From: a gamma proteobacterium SCGC AAA076-P13
GTDB lineage: Bacteria > Pseudomonadota > Gammaproteobacteria > Magnimaribacterales > D2472
Reading direction: 5' to 3'
NCBI GenBank assembly: GCA_000384935.1
Contig: ARRA01000002.1
Location: 191,700-255,699 of the forward strand
Length of the DNA stretch: 64,000 bases
Shown here: in pieces, positions 6,356 to 13,542 of the stretch
Position numbering within the stretch: position 1 is the first letter of the stretch
How the letters are laid out: every line of letters starts with the position of its first letter
Notes under the pieces: model-generated
Databases searched by the model: none
What the model saw: the letters and a program-made list of their open reading frames with translations, nothing else
Told to the model about the DNA's origin: nothing
Program-made: the position numbers and the translations under genes

Positions 6356-6440
6356 GGGGATGTGGTGGAACTGGTAGACACGCTTGGCTTAGAACCAAGT
6401 GCCGCAAGGCGTGGGGGTTCGACTCCCTCCATCCCTACCA
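6356..6440 (+). tRNA. tRNA-Leu(TAG)
   Basis: GGGGATG/CATCCCT acceptor stem, anticodon loop CTTAGAA, long variable arm, GTTCGA T-loop, encoded CCA. Confidence 0.97.
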
Positions 6441-6512: not shown

Positions 6513-7664
6513 ATGACATATTCAAATAAAGATGAATCTATAAATAATCACTTTTTAAATGAATCTGATGCAATAGAAAGGATTTTTAATCATATCGATA
6601 ATGGAACTACCGATCTTGGTGATACAACATGGAAAGAGCCAGTAAGTAATTATTATTCAAAAGATCGTTTTGATGCTGAAATTTCTTTACTAAGAAGATC
6701 TCCTATTCCTTATTGTCCCTCAGCAGGGTTACCTGAAAATGGAAGCTATATAGCCAGAAGGGCATCAGGAACACCCTTGTTAGTGGTTAGAGGTGAGGAT
6801 GGTATTGTTAGAGCCTTTATAAATGCATGCAAACATCGTGGCATGAAGGTTGCTGATGGAAGTGGGTGCAAAAAGAAAGCTTTTGTTTGTCCATATCATG
6901 CATGGGCTTATGGCTTAAATGGAAAGCTTAAAAACATTCCAGGCCAAGAGGCATTTCCAGATTTAGATACCAACGATTTGGGGCTTACAGAAATAAGCGC
7001 AATTGAAAAGGGTGGAATTGTATATGTAATGCAGGAAGGAAAGATAGAAAATCATATGTTAGAAAACGCTATTGATTTTTTTGACACTGAACAAAAAATG
7101 TTTAGTTATGGCGAGGTTGTCGATGAGGCTAACTGGAAACTATTAACAGAAACTCTTCTAGAGGGCTACCATATAAAATCTCTACATAAAGATACTTTTT
7201 ATCCTTTTGGTCTAGATAATATCAATCTTGTAGAGACATCTGGCTCCAACTCACGAGTTATTTTTCCTTTCAAAAGAATTGAAAAAATAAGGCATATAGA
7301 TCCAAATGAAAGAAAATTAAATGGTGTTGCTACTTCAGTATTCCATCTATTTCCTAATGCAAGTGTTTCTATTCTATCAAAGCATTCAAGCCTAACAATC
7401 ATGGAGCCTTTATCACCATCAAGTGTAAAAATAGTTAGTTATCTTATATATAACCCAAAATTAAATGGCAAAAATATATCCCTTGAAGAAGCAGAAAAGG
7501 ATGCTCAGTTTGTTAATGAGTCAGGTCAAAATGAAGACAGAGAGGCTGCTAGAGCAATACAAGAAACTGTCACAACTTCAGCTAATTCATATCTTACTTT
7601 TGGCTTTTTTGAAAAAGCAATTGTTAACTTTCATAAACATCTGGCCTTAAGCCTTGATAAATAG
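6513..7664 (+). CDS. Rieske non-heme iron oxygenase alpha subunit (ring-hydroxylating / choline monooxygenase-like)
   Basis: Rieske motif CKHRG...CPYHAW and mononuclear iron motif EGYHIKSLH. Confidence 0.9.
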   Translation: MTYSNKDESINNHFLNESDAIERIFNHIDNGTTDLGDTTWKEPVSNYYSKDRFDAEISLLRRSPIPYCPSAGLPENGSYIARRASGTPLLVVRGEDGIVRAFINACKHRGMKVADGSGCKKKAFVCPYHAWAYGLNGKLKNIPGQEAFPDLDTNDLGLTEISAIEKGGIVYVMQEGKIENHMLENAIDFFDTEQKMFSYGEVVDEANWKLLTETLLEGYHIKSLHKDTFYPFGLDNINLVETSGSNSRVIFPFKRIEKIRHIDPNERKLNGVATSVFHLFPNASVSILSKHSSLTIMEPLSPSSVKIVSYLIYNPKLNGKNISLEEAEKDAQFVNESGQNEDREAARAIQETVTTSANSYLTFGFFEKAIVNFHKHLALSLDK

Positions 7665-7677
7665 AGTCACTGACGAG

Positions 7678-7705
7678 TTTACAAACTATTATTTACATAT
7701 ATACT
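7678..7705 (+). promoter_or_regulatory. Putative sigma70 promoter of the arg leader/operon
   Basis: TTTACA (7678-7683), 16-nt spacer, TATACT (7700-7705); predicted TSS about 7712-7714. Confidence 0.55.
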
Positions 7706-7713
7706 AATTTGCA

Positions 7714-7758
7714 ATGAATAATTCAAATACACGATTAAGACGGGTTCCCGCTTTATAG
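7714..7758 (+). CDS. Putative arginine attenuator leader peptide MNNSNTRLRRVPAL
   Basis: ATG AAT AAT TCA AAT ACA CGA TTA AGA CGG GTT CCC GCT TTA TAG; three Arg codons within four codons, directly ahead of attenuator hairpins and an arg biosynthesis operon. Confidence 0.75.
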   Translation: MNNSNTRLRRVPAL

Positions 7759-7809
7759 CAGGGTCTTTTCTATTGTGAATTAGACCCAGCTTATGCTGGG
7801 TTTTTTTTT
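7747..7809 (+). promoter_or_regulatory. Transcription attenuator with mutually exclusive 1:2, 2:3 and 3:4 hairpins
   Basis: 1:2 CCCGCT(7747-52)/AGCAGGG(7757-63); 2:3 GGGTCT(7761-66)/AGACCC(7782-87); 3:4 ACCCAGC-TTAT-GCTGGGT followed by a T-tract. Confidence 0.75.
7784..7809 (+). terminator. Intrinsic terminator (attenuator 3:4) upstream of argF'
   Basis: ACCCAGC TTAT GCTGGGT hairpin with T9 at 7801-7809, ending 18 nt before the argF' ATG. Confidence 0.88.
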
Positions 7810-7827
7810 ATAAAAATAAAGGTAATT

Positions 7828-8829
7828 ATGAAAAATTTTATTTCTACACAGGATTGGTCAAAATCAGATCTTCAAGATATCTTAGATTATGCAAAAGATC
7901 TTAAAGTAAATAAGTTTCAGGATAATTTAAAAAATAAGTCTATTGCATTGATGTTTTTTAATCCATCTATGAGAACTAGGACTAGCTTTGAACTTGGCAT
8001 ACAGCAATTAGGTGGGCTTGCAGTAGTCCTTCATCCTGGAAAGGATGCTTGGCCAATTGAATTCAAGTTAAATGAAGTCATGGATACAGATTCAGAAGAA
8101 CATATTATAGAAGTTGCAAAAGTGCTCTCTGAATATTGTGATTTAATAGCAATAAGGGCATTTCCTAAATTTATTAATCTTGAAGAAGATTTATCAGATA
8201 ATGTTATTAACAGTTTTGCAAAGTATGCAACTGTTCCAGTAGTTAATATGGAAACTATTACTCATCCTTGCCAAGAGCTCGCTCATATTTTAACTATGCA
8301 AGAGCAGTTAGGTGATCTTTCTGGAAAAGATTACTTATTAACTTGGACATATCATCCAAAACCTTTAAATACAGCAGTGGCAAATTCATCTTTATTAATT
8401 GCAAGCAAGTTTGGCATGAACGTTAAGTTACTTTGCCCCACAGAAGATTATTTACTTCATGATACATATATGAATACAGCAATAGAAAACTGTAATGCTA
8501 ATGGTGCGTCATTCTCAATAACTCATGACATCAAAGAAGGTTATAAAAATGCTGACATTGTTTATGCTAAAAGTTGGGGCGCACTTAACTATTATGGACA
8601 TCCTGAGGATGAAAAATTAATAAGAGATAGATATAAGCATTTTATTGTTAATGAAGAAAAAATGGCAATGACTAACAATGCTAAATTCAGTCACTGTCTT
8701 CCCCTAAGGAGAAATATCAAAGCAACAGACGGAGTTATGGACTCTGATTATTGTGTTGCCATTCAAGAAGCAGGGAATAGAATGCATGTTCAAAAATCTT
8801 TACTATCAACTTTATTAAAGGATAAATAA
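7828..8829 (+). CDS. argF: N-acetylornithine carbamoyltransferase (AOTCase, ArgF')
   Basis: FNPSMRTRTS carbamoyl-phosphate motif, HCLPLRRNIK, TWTYHPKPL; MDTDSEEH carries Glu at the position that distinguishes acetyl- from succinyl-OTCase. Confidence 0.9.
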   Translation: MKNFISTQDWSKSDLQDILDYAKDLKVNKFQDNLKNKSIALMFFNPSMRTRTSFELGIQQLGGLAVVLHPGKDAWPIEFKLNEVMDTDSEEHIIEVAKVLSEYCDLIAIRAFPKFINLEEDLSDNVINSFAKYATVPVVNMETITHPCQELAHILTMQEQLGDLSGKDYLLTWTYHPKPLNTAVANSSLLIASKFGMNVKLLCPTEDYLLHDTYMNTAIENCNANGASFSITHDIKEGYKNADIVYAKSWGALNYYGHPEDEKLIRDRYKHFIVNEEKMAMTNNAKFSHCLPLRRNIKATDGVMDSDYCVAIQEAGNRMHVQKSLLSTLLKDK

Positions 8830-8832
8830 AAA

Positions 8833-10023
8833 ATGAAAAAAATTGTATTAGCTTTTTCGGGCGGATTAGACACTAGTTTCTGTGTTCCATACCTAATTGA
8901 TAAAGGTTTTGAGGTTCATACTATATTTGTAAATACTGGCGGAACGCCAAAGAAAGAGGAGGAAAAAATTACCAAAAGAGCAAATGAGCTCGGGGCGAAA
9001 AAACATATTAATGTAAATGTTGATAATCTTTTATGGAATCAAATTATTAAGCCATTAGTTTGGTCTGGAGCTCTATATCAAGATAAATATCCAGCACTAT
9101 GTTCGGATAGGTATCTTATAGTTTCAGAAGCAATAAGGCTCTGTAAAAAACTAAACACCAAATATATTTCTCATGGTTGTACAGGAATGGGTAATGATCA
9201 GGTAAGGTTTGATCTCTCAATCCAAGCATTTGGCAAATATAAGACCATTACTCCTATAAGAGAAATACAAAATAAAGTTAATGATGTGAGGGGGTATGAG
9301 CAGAAATATCTTGAAGAGAAAGGATTCAAAGTTTCATCTATACACTCAAAATATAGTATCAATGAAAACCTTATGGGGGCTACTGTTTCTGGATCTGAAA
9401 TAGACGAATGGAAAGAACCATCTAAAGAAAGCTATATCCTTTGTAATACACCTGACAAATACCCATCTAAATTAAAAAAGATAGTAATAGAATTCTCAAA
9501 GGGTGAGGCTAAAAAAATTGATGGCGTGGCTATTAAAGGCCCCGAGTTATTAAGAATGCTAAACAAGCTAGGTGGCAAGTACGGAATTGGCAGAGAAATT
9601 TTTGCCAGCGATACAATTATAGGCATTAAGGGAAGATTTCTTTTTGAGTCTCCTGGTATAAACATACTCCAGTCTGCACATAGAGCTCTAGAGGAATCTA
9701 TTTTTACTGATAAACAAAACTTTTTTAAGCCTATTGTTGGTAAAAAATGGGTTGAATTAGTTTATGGTGGCTTTTATTTTGATCCTTTAGCAAGAAACCT
9801 CGAAAATTTTTTACAAGATATTGAACTGCCTGTGAACGGCAAAGTAACAATGTTACTTTCACCAGGAAAGTCAGAAGCAGTAGCTGTTGAAGCTAAAAAA
9901 ATACTAATTAGTAAAGAAGCCATATATGCTCAGTCTGCCTCATGGGGTGTTGAAGAATCAGCTGGTTTTATTAAATTACTCGGTCAAAGTACTGCAACTT
10001 GGACGGATATAAATAAAAAGTAA
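8833..10023 (+). CDS. argG: Argininosuccinate synthase
   Basis: LAFSGGLDTS and HGCTGMGNDQVRF motifs. Confidence 0.97.
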   Translation: MKKIVLAFSGGLDTSFCVPYLIDKGFEVHTIFVNTGGTPKKEEEKITKRANELGAKKHINVNVDNLLWNQIIKPLVWSGALYQDKYPALCSDRYLIVSEAIRLCKKLNTKYISHGCTGMGNDQVRFDLSIQAFGKYKTITPIREIQNKVNDVRGYEQKYLEEKGFKVSSIHSKYSINENLMGATVSGSEIDEWKEPSKESYILCNTPDKYPSKLKKIVIEFSKGEAKKIDGVAIKGPELLRMLNKLGGKYGIGREIFASDTIIGIKGRFLFESPGINILQSAHRALEESIFTDKQNFFKPIVGKKWVELVYGGFYFDPLARNLENFLQDIELPVNGKVTMLLSPGKSEAVAVEAKKILISKEAIYAQSASWGVEESAGFIKLLGQSTATWTDINKK

Positions 10024-10024
10024 A

Positions 10025-11335
10025 ATGAACCAAAACTTTACTAAAGATACTATTTTAAAACTCCTCAGCGGGATGAGCAGTGAAAAAGAGATAAGAAAGT
10101 ACTTAGACAGATTTTCTTCTGATGACTTTAGATTTGCTGTAATTAAAGTTGGTGGAGCAGTAATAGAAAATGATTTAGATAATTTAATATCCTCCTTAGT
10201 ATTTTTAAATGAAGTTGGACTAAGACCAATTATAGTTCATGGAGGTGGCCCAAAACTTTCAAGAGCATTAGAGGAGAAAAAAATACATTTTTCATTTAAG
10301 GATGGCCAAAGAGTTACATCACAAAAAGTCTTAGATGAAGCTATTGATGTATTTAAGGCTGAAAATCAAAAAATTACATCTGCCTTGATTAAAAAGAATG
10401 TATCAGCCGTATCTTTGATTGATGATATTTTTAAGTGCATCATTCAAGATGAAGAATTAGGGTTCGTTGGTTCTATTATTGAAACTAATTCAAATAAAAT
10501 AAGGAATATTATTTCAAATGGAGGAGTGCCAGTAATAGCTCCAATGGGATATACAGATAAAAAACAAATAGTAAATATTAATGGCGATAAGGCAACCCAG
10601 GCTCTAGCAAAAGAAATATCTCCTGATAAGGTTATTTTTTTAAGTGAGATTGGGGGAATTCTTGATGGGTCAGATAACTTAATCTCAACGATAAACATTA
10701 AAGACGATTATGAGAGATTAATGTCTGAGGGGTGGCTCCACTCAGGAATGAAGCTTAAGCTTAAAGAGATTAAGCTTCTTCTTGATCACCTACCTAGTAA
10801 TAGTTCGGTATCAATAACAAAACCTCTTTATTTAAATAGAGAACTTTTTACTGATGCTGGCTTTGGAACTCTGGTAAAGGCAGGTCATCAAATAGATAAA
10901 CTTAAAGAGCTAGATAATGCAAATAAAGACGTCATTACATCAATCCTTGAATCAGCATTTAAAGGAACACTCGATAAAAATTATTTTATCAATCAAGATA
11001 AAGAATATTATGTAAGTAGCTGTAGGAGAGCTTCAATAGCTATATCCCACCATCAAAAAATAGCTTATATGGATAAATTTGCTGTTAAAGCTGATGCAAG
11101 AGGAGAGGGGCTTGGTAATGCTATATGGAATAGAATGACAGCTGATCACAAAAAGGTTTTTTGGAGATCTAGACCAAACAATTCAATAAACTTCTTTTAT
11201 AAGAATGTTTGTGATGGCTTTCAAAAAACTGATGAATGGAATATCTTTTGGATTGGGGTTAATGACCTAGATGAACTTACTGAATGCATAAGAATTGCAT
11301 CTCATCAACCTGAAACAATTACATATGAAAAATAA
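10025..11335 (+). CDS. argB: Bifunctional N-acetylglutamate synthase/kinase (vertebrate-like NAGS-K; AAK plus NAT domains)
   Basis: IKVGG and VHGGG kinase motifs, ELFTDAGFGTL linker, NAT domain YMDKFAV...GEGLG...FWRSR; 436 aa. Confidence 0.88.
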   Translation: MNQNFTKDTILKLLSGMSSEKEIRKYLDRFSSDDFRFAVIKVGGAVIENDLDNLISSLVFLNEVGLRPIIVHGGGPKLSRALEEKKIHFSFKDGQRVTSQKVLDEAIDVFKAENQKITSALIKKNVSAVSLIDDIFKCIIQDEELGFVGSIIETNSNKIRNIISNGGVPVIAPMGYTDKKQIVNINGDKATQALAKEISPDKVIFLSEIGGILDGSDNLISTINIKDDYERLMSEGWLHSGMKLKLKEIKLLLDHLPSNSSVSITKPLYLNRELFTDAGFGTLVKAGHQIDKLKELDNANKDVITSILESAFKGTLDKNYFINQDKEYYVSSCRRASIAISHHQKIAYMDKFAVKADARGEGLGNAIWNRMTADHKKVFWRSRPNNSINFFYKNVCDGFQKTDEWNIFWIGVNDLDELTECIRIASHQPETITYEK

Positions 11336-12266
11336 AATCAACATAGCAATGATTGGTGGTAGAGGTTTTGTAGGTCAGGAGATAATTTCTACACTAAATG
11401 ACCACCCAATATTCATGCTAAGTAAAGTTTTTTCTAAAACAGCTGGTGGTGAGGTTGTGGAGGGTTACAAGAAAGCATCTAATCTAAAGTACTGCCTTCT
11501 TGATAAATCAAATTTGCAGCTAGAGAATGTTGATATCGTAATCATGGCATTAGCTAATGATGAATCAGAATCCTATGTAAATATTATTAAAAAAAATTAT
11601 CCAAATATCATATTTATTGATCTAAGCTCTGACCATAGGTTAGATAAAAGATGGGATTATAGGGTTCCCGAGCTTACAACAAAAAAAGCTACTAAATTCA
11701 TTAGCAATCCAGGATGTTATGCATCTGCAATACAATTCTCTCTGGCACCAATAAAAAATCTTATTTCCGGGAGAGTCAGTTCTATAGGTATCTCTGGTTA
11801 TAGTGGGGCTGGAGCTTCGCCAAATGATAAAAATAATCCCGTCAATCTTAAAAACAATATTATTCCATACTCTCTTACAAACCATCTTCACGAGCAAGAG
11901 GTTTCGAAGCATTGCTATGAAGAAATATCCTTTAGCCCTCATGTCGGTAATTTTTTTAGAGGTATTCTTATAACGTCTCATATACAACTTAAAACAAGTC
12001 AAACGAATCAAGAAATTTTAGAAACCTTTGTTGATTTTTATAAAAACTCTAAATTAATTGAAGTTCTAGACGATATACCTATGATTAATAAGGTTGCTAA
12101 TACCCACAAGGCTCTAATAGGCGGAATATCTATTGATAATTCAGGAGTAAACTTAACAGTATGTTGCGCTCTTGATAACTTGCTTAAGGGAGCTGCTACA
12201 CAAGTTATACAAAATCTTAATTCGGCATGCAGTCTTGATGAATTAACAGGAATAGATTATGAATAA
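11325..12266 (+). CDS. argC: N-acetyl-gamma-glutamyl-phosphate reductase
   Basis: GGRGFVG, DLSSDHR, SNPGCY, SGYSGAG, DNLLKGAA; start set at ATG 11325. Confidence 0.95.
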   Translation: MKNKINIAMIGGRGFVGQEIISTLNDHPIFMLSKVFSKTAGGEVVEGYKKASNLKYCLLDKSNLQLENVDIVIMALANDESESYVNIIKKNYPNIIFIDLSSDHRLDKRWDYRVPELTTKKATKFISNPGCYASAIQFSLAPIKNLISGRVSSIGISGYSGAGASPNDKNNPVNLKNNIIPYSLTNHLHEQEVSKHCYEEISFSPHVGNFFRGILITSHIQLKTSQTNQEILETFVDFYKNSKLIEVLDDIPMINKVANTHKALIGGISIDNSGVNLTVCCALDNLLKGAATQVIQNLNSACSLDELTGIDYE

Positions 12267-13542
12267 AAAACTATGGAATAATAAAACTAGTAATATATCT
12301 GAGGAAATTACATCTTTTTTAGCTGGCGAAGATATTGAGTTAGACAAATTTATATTCATTTATGATATTGACGCATCTTTAGCACATGTAAAAGCTCTGC
12401 AGTCTATAGAGATAATAAAAAAAAATGAGCTAACAAAGCTTACTAAAGCTCTTAAAATTCTCAGAAAAAACTTTATTGAAGGCTCATTTAAGTTAACTAA
12501 TAAATATGAGGATTGTCATTCAGCCATTGAGTTTTATTTGACTAAAGAGCTTGGCGATCTTGGTAAAAAAGTTCATACAGGCAGAAGTAGAAATGATCAG
12601 GTGATGGTAGCAATGAGATTATTTGCTAAAAAAAATCTCATTGAATTCAAAGCAAAGAATAAATTAATTGCTGAAACTTTTTTAAATTTAGCAAAGAAAC
12701 ATAAAGATTTACCAATGCCAGGATATACGCATCTTCAAAGAGCTATGCCTTCATCATGGGGTTTATGGTTTTCTTCATATGCTGAATCTTTCATCGATAA
12801 TGTAGATCTAATTAACAATACTATTGACTGGGTTGATTCAAACCCATTGGGGAGTGCGGCTGGCTATGGAGTTGCAATTCCATTAAATAGAGACTTAGTA
12901 ACTAAGGAGTTAGGTTTTAGTAGAACTCAGTTAAATAGTTTGTATGTTCAGAATAGCAGGGGTAAGTATGAGATGCAGATACTTAATACCTTGAAGCAAT
13001 CAATGTTAGATATAAGAAAATTTTCATGGGATATGAGTTTATTTTTATCACAAGAGTTTGATCTATTATCTATTGATAGTAAGTATTCAACAGGATCGTC
13101 AATTATGCCTAACAAACACAACCCAGATGTCATAGAAATATTAAGAGCAAATTATTCAATACTAGCTGGCTTTTCATCGGAACTGGAAAATTTACTCTCT
13201 CTTCCTAGTGGTTATCATAGAGACCTTCAATTAACTAAAAGAAGTCTAATAAATGGTTTTCACACCTCACTTAAATCATTAGATATTATTCCAGCTTTAC
13301 TAAAGACAATTAAGATAAACAAAACTAACTCCAACAAATATATAGATAATGAAATGAAAATGACTGATAAAGTTTACTCGCTTGTTTCTGATGGAGTTCC
13401 TTTTAGAGATGCATACGGTCTAGTAAAAAATTCTGATGACCATTCCTTATTACCTGAAACAAAATCTTTAAATCACTCTATGGGATCGCCAGGAAATTTG
13501 AACCTCAATTTGTTAGAGAAGAGACTAAAAAAGCAAAAATAA
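12259..13542 (+). CDS. argH: Argininosuccinate lyase
   Basis: HTGRSRNDQ, PGYTHLQRA and GSSIMPNKHNPD signatures. Confidence 0.96.
   Translation: MNKKLWNNKTSNISEEITSFLAGEDIELDKFIFIYDIDASLAHVKALQSIEIIKKNELTKLTKALKILRKNFIEGSFKLTNKYEDCHSAIEFYLTKELGDLGKKVHTGRSRNDQVMVAMRLFAKKNLIEFKAKNKLIAETFLNLAKKHKDLPMPGYTHLQRAMPSSWGLWFSSYAESFIDNVDLINNTIDWVDSNPLGSAAGYGVAIPLNRDLVTKELGFSRTQLNSLYVQNSRGKYEMQILNTLKQSMLDIRKFSWDMSLFLSQEFDLLSIDSKYSTGSSIMPNKHNPDVIEILRANYSILAGFSSELENLLSLPSGYHRDLQLTKRSLINGFHTSLKSLDIIPALLKTIKINKTNSNKYIDNEMKMTDKVYSLVSDGVPFRDAYGLVKNSDDHSLLPETKSLNHSMGSPGNLNLNLLEKRLKKQK

Follow-up and report, generated by a model that had tools for sequence, protein, structure and literature searches.

A candidate arginine-specific, ribosome-mediated transcription attenuator upstream of argF' in SAR86 bacteria, with homologous leaders in Kangiella and Xanthomonadales

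The subject of this study is a short leader immediately upstream of argF', the gene of N-acetylornithine carbamoyltransferase, on a 64,000-nt stretch of DNA (the window) from the gammaproteobacterium SCGC AAA076-P13 (contig ARRA01000002.1, positions 191,700 to 255,699 of the forward strand), a member of the SAR86 order whose genome assembly (1.31 Mb, 34% G+C) is 87% complete. We conclude that this element is very probably a classical ribosome-mediated transcription attenuator specific for arginine. The same proposal had been made in a preliminary description of the window, and it is supported by the conservation of the leader, the rarity of its sensor codon, homologous leaders in distant bacteria, and the outcome of a search for the repressor ArgR. 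We infer the transcription start, the leaderless translation, the stalling of the ribosome, and the response to arginine from the sequence. Genomes, contigs, and loci are cited below by our own numbers with the prefixes G, C, and L; G000 is the genome of the window.

Organization of the leader

The leader combines a promoter, a short open reading frame (ORF), and four RNA strands with alternative partners. Its parts, and the gene behind it, are as follows.

7678 to 7683, + strand: -35 box TTTACA, without variation across all 21 same-genus loci of alignment A1
7700 to 7705, + strand: -10 box TATACT, separated from the -35 box by a 16-nt spacer and invariant within the genus
7714 to 7758, + strand: leader ORF of 14 codons, MNNSNTRLRRVPAL, with ATG at 7714 and the stop codon TAG at 7756 to 7758
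7730 to 7735, + strand: 5' arm of the P1 outer stem (partner 7772 to 7777)
7732 to 7734, + strand: Arg codon CGA, codon 7, not conserved
7738 to 7743, + strand: putative regulatory Arg codons AGA (7738 to 7740) and CGG (7741 to 7743), codons 9 and 10
7738 to 7752, + strand: strand 1, 5' half of the 1:2 anti-antiterminator, which overlaps the Arg codons and pairs with 7757 to 7771
7757 to 7766, + strand: strand 2, AGCAGGGTCT, which begins inside the stop codon and has strand 1 or strand 3 as alternative partners
7772 to 7777, + strand: 3' arm of the P1 outer stem (partner 7730 to 7735)
7782 to 7791, + strand: strand 3, AGACCCAGCT, common to the antiterminator and the terminator
7795 to 7803, + strand: strand 4, 3' arm of the terminator, which repeats the GCTGGGT of strand 2
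7801 to 7809, + strand: T-tract of the terminator, nine T
7818 to 7822, + strand: Shine-Dalgarno-like AAAGG of argF'
7828 to 8829, + strand: argF', first gene of the putatively controlled operon

The product of argF' matches the NCBIfam model NF003384 with 534.5 bits (cut-off 288), and Pfam concurs. In a consensus scan of positions 7400 to 8000, the promoter (10 of 12 consensus matches) was the sole promoter-like site and the hairpin at 7782 to 7803 the sole terminator-like site; no promoter-like site was found between the terminator and argF', whose ATG lies 19 nt behind the T-tract. From the position of the promoter, transcription is predicted to start at about 7712 to 7714. The leader ATG follows the -10 box by 8 nt and is not preceded by a Shine-Dalgarno sequence, so the leader mRNA would, judging by this spacing, be leaderless or nearly so.

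The core of helix 1:2 is CCCGCT (7747 to 7752) with AGCAGGG (7757 to 7763), that of helix 2:3 is GGGTCT (7761 to 7766) with AGACCC (7782 to 7787), and helix 3:4 is the terminator ACCCAGC-TTAT-GCTGGGT followed by the nine T. The three helices, which share strands 2 and 3, are mutually exclusive. The 2:3 antiterminator spans 10 positions, nine of which are paired in the genome of the window (one A.A mismatch), and it is perfectly paired in three close relatives. The preliminary description had named the promoter TTTACA-16-TATACT, the 14-codon ORF with CGA, AGA, and CGG at codons 7, 9, and 10, and the three exclusive helices; all of these were recovered, and the 2:3 helix was revised from 6 bp to 10 positions.

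The RNA from 7706 to 7812 has a folding energy of -32.1 kcal/mol (z = -5.17), and none of 200 shuffled sequences was as stable. Its minimum-energy fold is the long imperfect hairpin P1 followed by the terminator. The competing structures have similar stabilities, i.e., -14.0 kcal/mol for P1, -14.4 kcal/mol for the 2:3 segment, and -14.4 kcal/mol for the 3:4 terminator. The whole device is only ~95 nt long.

Proposed mechanism

The footprint of a ribosome reaches ~13 nt 3' of the codon in its A site. When a mask of 13 nt is applied to the leader, strand 1 is hidden and strand 2 stays accessible with the ribosome on CGG, and strand 2 is hidden with the ribosome on TAG. The coordinates and the masked folds thus bear out the trp/his-like geometry that had been proposed for this element, in which stalling at the Arg codons blocks strand 1 and arrival at the stop codon blocks strand 2.

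We suggest the following course of events. RNA polymerase would start at about 7712 to 7714, and a ribosome would load directly on the 5'-terminal AUG. With charged Arg-tRNA at hand, the ribosome would run to TAG 7756 and cover strand 2; strand 3 would then pair with strand 4, and transcription would end at 7801 to 7809, before argF'. Under a shortage of charged tRNA-Arg, the ribosome would come to a halt with AGA or CGG (7738 to 7743) in its decoding site and cover strand 1, whereupon strand 2 would pair with strand 3 in the 10-position antiterminator, formation of the terminator would be prevented, and argF'-argG-argB-argC-argH would be transcribed. If the leader is not translated at all, the 1:2 hairpin P1 would form and termination would follow.

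Conservation of the leader within SAR86

An ArgF' search of 41 related genomes returned 22 orthologous loci with 80-100% identity, one of which is cut at a contig end, leaving 21 usable same-genus loci. The element is present in all 21 of these loci, each with an intact 5' side. Its ATG is invariant although both flanks vary (alignment A1), exactly seven codons stand before AGA-CGG, no indel occurs between ATG and CGG, and the stop codon lies at strand 2. This stop is TAG in 20 of the 21 loci; the exception, L005, has lost 1 nt, which changes the frame, and a substitution close by creates TGA one codon further on. Variation is free at codons 2 to 8; of these, codon 7 is CGA in L001-L003 and CAA (Gln) in all 18 remaining loci.

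Eleven further loci (L031-L039, L045, and L047), several of them from species already represented, were added, and collapsing identical sequences reduced the 32 loci to 19 unique leader ORFs. In all but one of the 32 loci, the ATG follows the -10 box at a distance of 7-10 nt, and the 2:3 helix keeps 7-10 of its 10 pairs in every unique leader. The reading frame of the leader peptide is open in 19/19 unique leaders, compared with 3/19 for frame +1 and 5/19 for frame +2. This bias, the invariant ATG amid variable flanks, and the lack of indels between ATG and CGG in 21 loci argue against a translation-independent RNA switch, in which P1 would be an aptamer or a protein-binding site for arginine or another ligand, its occupation would stabilize the anti-antiterminator, and the ORF would be incidental. 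P1 has the look expected of such a switch, being a long, conserved, imperfect hairpin with the invariant internal segments AGACGGG and TAGCTGG; the GG of CGG lies inside P1 pairs, and the three-helix logic would be equally workable with a ligand. However, distant relatives keep the arginine by means of different codons, and the distribution of their substitutions over the codon positions, described below, is not what an aptamer would be expected to produce. Nor does an Rfam regulatory RNA family match the window: a scan of all 64 kb at the gathering thresholds returned only seven tRNAs and no curated regulatory RNA family, and a permissive scan of 7000-8500 returned only sub-threshold matches resting on the terminator hairpin (SorY, anti-hemB, RyhB, and others). 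We therefore regard a ligand-operated switch as quite improbable.

The structural statistics were computed first for the closest leaders and also for a wider set of 34 distinct SAR86 leaders from seven genera (alignment A3). In the 19 closest leaders, P1 and the terminator together are 93.5% paired and the antiterminator is 88.3% paired. In the wider set, P1 and the terminator are 88.0% paired, versus 32-53% with slid partners; nine of their pairs change on both sides, a number reached by 2 of 500 shuffles, and the covariation score is 0.212 versus 0.156, a value reached by none of 500 shuffles. Compensatory changes occur in four of the five pairs of the P1 outer stem. The antiterminator is 85.1% paired in the same set, versus 21-48% with slid partners; its five core pairs are kept in 33-34 of the 34 leaders, and two outer pairs show compensation.

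The gene upstream of the leader differs among the relatives, being the Rieske oxygenase gene, a tRNA gene, or others, and the element stays with argF' while this gene changes. The hairpin therefore belongs to argF' and is not, as the preliminary description had considered, merely the terminator of the Rieske gene. A related view is that the hairpin is a constitutive terminator or insulator, with the operon expressed by leaky readthrough and with the ORF and the alternative helices present by chance. A very similar hairpin of the same genome does act in this plain manner: at C3:142079-142108, between a proteorhodopsin-like gene (C3:141303-142052) and a convergent gene, CCCAGC, a 4-nt loop, and GCTGGG are flanked by T-runs on both strands, and the region around it (C3:142019-142167; 43 and 39 bits), which had come up as a possible second leader, is an ordinary bidirectional terminator instead. 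The full-length covariance model of the SAR86 leader separates the two clearly, with one match in the genome of the window at 108 bits (C2:199411-199507, equal to window 7712-7808) and the next best at 43 bits; a pattern search for second copies likewise gave the leader itself as the one strong match. Moreover, the hairpin before argF' sits downstream of a conserved promoter, the gene upstream of it varies, different genera and orders conserve it along with the ORF and strand 2, and strand 2 covaries with strands 3 and 4. The chance that it is only a constitutive terminator seems to us minimal.

The rare codon CGG as the putative sensor

Codon usage was counted over 856 ORFs of at least 200 aa (342,683 codons). 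CGG is the rarest sense codon of the genome, with 100 occurrences among the 342,683 codons, i.e., 0.29 per 1000 and 0.8% of the Arg codons, whereas AGA makes up 69% and CGA 5.2% of the Arg codons. The scarcity of CGN codons in this AGA-dominated DNA, which had been a visual impression, is thus borne out by counting. In the 87%-complete assembly, ARAGORN found tRNA-Arg genes with the anticodons ACG, UCG, CCU (twice), and UCU and did not find tRNA-Arg(CCG). The reading of CGG would therefore depend solely on wobble, with one tRNA shared between two rare codons. Among the tRNAs found, only the minor tRNA-Arg(UCG) could read CGG, and it is probably the critical one.

CGG stands at the same place in 34/34 distinct SAR86 leaders while the other residues of the peptide drift. 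Its neighbor is AGA before it, AGA after it (L045 and L132), or a non-Arg codon. The expectation that the Arg codons are conserved in the relatives thus held for AGA-CGG in the 21 same-genus loci and for CGG throughout, and it failed for the first of the three codons, as CGA is mostly replaced by CAA. We suggest on the basis of these alignments that the invariant sensor would be the single rare codon CGG, rather than three Arg codons.

Homologous leaders in Kangiella and Xanthomonadales

An ArgF' scan with one genome per species returned 80 loci. A terminator with an upstream ORF is present in 68 of them, and 67 of these ORFs have at least two Arg within six codons; the 12 loci without a terminator belong to other SAR86 types, to SAR92 or Porticoccaceae, and, in one case, to Lysobacteraceae. 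The Kangiella leaders contain QQRRRSR, encoded with the Arg codons CGA, CGT, and CGC. The leader ORFs of Xanthomonadales are 31-39 codons long and share the core GMTSRARRP, with the codons CGY GCN CGY CGA; most of them end with AG + stop, at which point GCTGGG forms strand 2. In both groups, the core of strands 2, 3, and 4 is the same as in SAR86. The suggestion that such an attenuator would be peculiar to a streamlined bacterium is not sustained by its presence before argF' in these groups.

Two features of the Xanthomonadales leaders are informative. Within the GMTSRARRP block, the minor-allele counts at codon positions 1, 2, and 3 are 3, 2, and 66 (35 unique versions from 53 loci). The strands 2/3/4 are GCTGG(G/A)/CCCAGC/GCTGGG in 50 loci and GCCGG(G/A)/CCCGGC/GCCGGG in 6, with two loci mixed or wobble. 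The third-position variation, the use of different Arg codons, and the covariation of three strands together indicate that the ORF is translated, that arginine is conserved, and that the 2:3 pairing is under selection.

The Xanthomonadales element has a counterpart in Rfam. The model RF02242 (Xoo5, 'Xanthomonadaceae sRNA'), which Rfam labels as Gene; sRNA (small RNA), matches the Stenotrophomonas locus L056 at 968-1091 with 115.1 bits (gathering threshold 50). It extends from 2 nt upstream of the AUG that opens the leader ORF (MKLTDF...) to a point just short of the terminator. In Xanthomonas oryzae, Xoo5 has been cloned; 5' rapid amplification of cDNA ends gave a 124-nt RNA, Northern blots gave bands of ~130 and ~100 nt, and the RNA was placed upstream of PXO_00353, which is tabulated as N-acetylornithine carbamoyltransferase (Liang et al. 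2011, PMC3039613). The words 'arginine' and 'leader' do not occur in the main text of that article. The Xoo5 data thus show independently, by experiment, that the homologous site gives rise to a discrete short transcript that is essentially leaderless. The sizes given for X. oryzae fall somewhat short of the ~160 nt between the AUG and the T-run of the Stenotrophomonas locus.

Xoo5 resembles the SAR86 leader in that it adjoins argF' co-directionally, contains an ORF with Arg codons (SRARRP), and has the same core of GCTGGG/CCCAGC/GCTGGG plus T-run. It differs in its longer ORF with a conserved peptide core and in its annotation as an sRNA gene, and the Rfam model is blind to the SAR86 form, with no match to window 7000-8500 at E values up to 10 and none in the gathering scan of the whole window. 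The Xanthomonas form of the element is already catalogued, probably under a wrong label, as the sRNA Xoo5.

If the label were taken at face value, the element would be an independent gene of a trans-acting sRNA that exerts no cis control over the arg operon. The listing of the Xanthomonas homologue in Rfam and the discrete RNA of ~100-130 nt that accumulates according to the published blots agree with this idea, and attenuator RNAs that act also in trans are on record, e.g., rnTrpL. Yet the element is always co-directional and immediately 5' of argF' or of one receptor gene, with no promoter-like site in between, so that no promoter would be visible for the operon; nor would the antiterminator or the translated Arg codons serve a purpose. 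A purely trans-acting RNA gene is thus extremely improbable, and a trans role may exist besides the cis role.

Search for ArgR

ArgR-type repressors are taken as the rule for arg genes. In G000, neither of the ArgR domains PF01316 and PF02863 had a match; AraC-type ArgR and ArgP were not searched. The C-terminal domain of ArgR (PF02863) was found in none of 41 genomes of the SAR86 order, 21 of which are at least 90% complete, other regulator families not being included in this search, and in none of five leader-bearing genomes of Stenotrophomonas, Kangiella, and Lysobacter. The same search was positive in 8 of 14 control genomes. These results agree with the earlier suggestion that arginine would be sensed without an ArgR repressor.

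Distribution and occurrence before a TonB-dependent receptor

Among 121 genomes of the family, 64 have a match to the covariance model at E values up to 0.001, and 55, from seven genera, have a full-length match of at least 48.7 bits. In three genomes of the genus of the window (G003, G007, and G016, one of them 94% complete), the ArgF' query gave only a weak paralogue match and there was no strong leader match, and arginine auxotrophy may vary between species of this genus.

We examined 20 weaker full-length matches. Eight precede argF' (two on the same contigs as L045 and L047), and the other 12, all from one sister genus, precede a gene with a signal-peptide-like start. Three of these 12 genes were checked with Pfam and encode a TonB-dependent receptor of ~795 aa with Plug and barrel domains; a fourth has an ORF of 798 aa, and the other eight were assigned by their N termini only. 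Receptor loci of this genus include the following.

L138:246-2624: TonB-dependent receptor, ~795 aa
L141:207-2609: TonB-dependent receptor, ~795 aa
L142:2722-5097, minus strand: TonB-dependent receptor, ~795 aa

The receptors are 86-88% identical to one another and match no specific NCBIfam family above its cut-off. There is no close orthologue in the genome of the window, where the best match has 35-44% identity and covers the plug domain only. In two loci, a cytochrome P450 follows the receptor.

ArgH was found in none of eight receptor-type genomes (80-96% complete), the controls G018 and G119 being positive in the same kind of search, and ArgF' in none of the five receptor-type genomes searched, one weak match of 26% identity having been set aside. 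The simplest reading is that species without arginine synthesis would use the arginine-starvation sensor to induce an outer membrane importer.

Apart from the helices, the receptor-type leaders have little in common except that they begin 7-9 nt behind the -10 box, carry CGG as codon 10 (or 12), and stop at strand 2. This bears on the idea that ribosome arrest at or near the stop codon is brought about jointly by the nascent leader peptide and free arginine, so that strand 2 stays covered and termination is enforced at high arginine. The fungal arginine attenuator peptide and TnaC are models of such an arrest, and the regulatory sign would be correct; GMTSRARRP is conserved as amino acids in Xanthomonadales, and the stop always abuts strand 2. 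In SAR86, however, the peptide has only 14 residues, all of which drift except at the Arg position, and leaders as different as MLKINLHKNRELAQ and MMFIINIHNKNREPSS both precede receptors that are 86-88% identical. The conserved feature is a rare codon, which fits decoding speed rather than peptide chemistry. We hold a peptide-mediated arrest to be very improbable.

Points against an arginine attenuator

Several observations weigh against the interpretation as an arginine attenuator and concern its structure, its sensor, its start, and its range. Stem covariation, which the preliminary description had singled out for testing, is supported on the 34 leaders and in Xanthomonadales, but it is weak in the 19 closest SAR86 leaders, where 12 to 40 of 500 shuffles reach the observed values; moreover, alignment A3 was fitted to the model and hence favors the structure of the model. 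In the masked fold with the ribosome on CGG, the terminator is still the minimum-energy structure in the genome of the window and in most relatives. The antiterminator wins at equilibrium in 4 of 15 unique same-genus leaders (L002, L003, L004, and L008), which have a perfect 10-bp 2:3 core or a single terminal mismatch. Therefore, the switch must be kinetic, as in the classical cases.

With respect to the sensor, the leader of the window has two or three Arg codons and some relatives have one (CGG), far fewer than the runs in his and phe leaders. The GG of CGG is also paired inside P1, and part of the CGG conservation could therefore be structural. The leaderless start is deduced from the promoter spacing alone, and in the related receptor-type leaders L125 (158-254) and L131, GTG takes the place of the ATG of the other leaders, although leaderless mRNAs use GTG poorly as a start codon. 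Four metatranscriptome runs contain the stretch from 6900 to 9000, with contig break points that differ between the runs, and this material consists of assembled contigs, which are blind to starts, ends, and strand. Finally, the receptor of the sister genus has no recognizable link to arginine.

Neighboring genes and other leaders

The remaining genes of the operon (8833 to 13542) and the upstream neighbor of the leader are listed here.

6513 to 7664: Rieske-type oxygenase gene, upstream neighbor of the leader
8833 to 10023, + strand: argG, second gene of the operon
10025 to 11335, + strand: argB fused to a NAT domain, third gene
11295 to 12266, + strand: argC, fourth gene
12259 to 13542, + strand: argH, last gene

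The longest ORF of argC begins at TTG, 41 nt inside argB, and its NCBIfam match runs from residue 15; the true start of argC is therefore probably further downstream. A tRNA gene (6356 to 6437) lies directly 5' of the Rieske oxygenase gene, and in many relatives (L010-type loci) a tRNA gene directly precedes the arg leader, so the oxygenase gene appears to have been inserted between these two elements in the lineage of the window. At 7722, contigs of two metatranscriptome runs show T>A, which changes leader codon 3 from AAT to AAA (Asn to Lys); this variant fits a leader peptide with unconstrained N-terminal residues.

Other arrangements occur elsewhere in SAR86. A second, longer type of leader ORF, with 40-56 codons, precedes argF' at L043:1044-1166, L052:1034-1162, L046:639-809, and L042:1010-1165. 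These ORFs end with RRRRSI, RRRRSV, KRRLRSI, or KLRSL, 34-38 nt before argF', and are followed by a weak or imperfect hairpin; those of L043 and L052 begin 9 nt after a -10-like box. At L040:776-1165 (also in L041, L044, and L050), a complete aspartate decarboxylase (PanD) is encoded immediately in front of argF'; PF02261 spans residues 1-114 of its 129, and its 15-residue tail ends with QRLRSL. This tail resembles the C termini of the separate leader peptides that sister genomes encode at this site, and the PanD ORF begins 9 nt after the same CATACT box and has a small hairpin without a T-run behind it. At the ordinary ornithine carbamoyltransferase genes of the SAR86 families f2 and f3 (L023-L030), inspection by eye of the short, divergent intergenic regions revealed no leader ORF or terminator.

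Relation to known systems

Leader-peptide attenuators are known for the trp, his, leu, thr, ilv, and phe operons of Enterobacteria, and the leu leader uses rare CUA codons. To our knowledge, arginine is a conspicuous gap in the textbook list of attenuated amino acid operons. The element described here resembles the classical attenuators in its short promoter-proximal ORF with codons of the pathway's own amino acid, its exclusive 1:2, 2:3, and 3:4 helices, its terminator before the first structural gene, and a stop codon whose position lets a terminating ribosome mask strand 2; a rare-codon sensor is found in leu as well. It differs from them in the amino acid, in having one to three regulatory codons, in being leaderless according to its predicted start, and in the size of the device.

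Three published systems come close in single respects. In the Salmonella speF leader, two consecutive Arg codons of orf34 report the arginine supply and select alternative mRNA structures (Ben-Zvi et al. 2019, PMC6386406). However, orf34 controls polyamine synthesis, and in the passages that describe it the mechanism consists of Rho-dependent termination, unmasking of a ribosome-binding site, and RNase G decay and contains no intrinsic terminator/antiterminator switch. The short leader peptide rbfL of Staphylococcus aureus senses arginine limitation by means of rare Arg codons and a scarce tRNA-Arg (Kohl et al. 2026, PMC13009471). As portrayed in the relevant parts of that article, rbfL differs in being translational, as it occludes the rbf ribosome-binding site and represses under starvation, in having a biofilm regulator as its target, and in having a Shine-Dalgarno sequence. 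In mycobacteria, leaderless Cys-rich upstream ORFs before cysteine-metabolism genes have been proposed as attenuators (Shell et al. 2015, PMC4633059). Like the SAR86 leader, they are leaderless small ORFs enriched in one amino acid and located upstream of the genes of that amino acid, but the amino acid is cysteine, the phylum is another, and a terminator/antiterminator architecture does not appear in the pertinent passages of the article.

The full-text literature searched, which did not extend to subscription journals, yielded no account of arginine biosynthesis under the control of a leader-peptide attenuator. The words 'arginine', 'argF', 'argG', and 'argC' are absent from the main text of one such article (Naville and Gautheret 2010, PMC2965389). 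The mechanism itself is textbook; what would be new is the amino acid, the minimal leaderless design with a single rare codon, the breadth of the family, the mislabelling as an sRNA, and the re-use before a receptor.

Biological meaning

Taking these results together, we are inclined to believe, with less confidence than in the attenuator itself, that arginine attenuation is widespread and serves as the main arginine sensor of ArgR-negative SAR86, Kangiella, and Xanthomonadales, that it has been hidden under the name Xoo5, that SAR86 has a minimal version of it (a leaderless 14-codon ORF with the rarest codon, CGG), and that it is portable to a TonB-dependent receptor as starvation-induced uptake. 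The cultured, tractable Kangiella, Lysobacter, and environmental Stenotrophomonas carry the homologous leader, and the idea is therefore directly testable.

If it is true, it would explain the control of arginine synthesis in bacteria where no ArgR was found, and an 'sRNA' family of Xanthomonadales would be re-annotated as a cis-acting attenuator. The very small design, leaderless and with one rare codon, would bear on regulation in streamlined genomes and could be of interest as a compact synthetic part. SAR86 is among the ocean's most abundant heterotrophs. In those of its species that are seemingly arginine auxotrophs, the TonB-dependent receptor would probably be induced by arginine starvation, and this link would bear on marine nitrogen and on the cross-feeding of amino acids.

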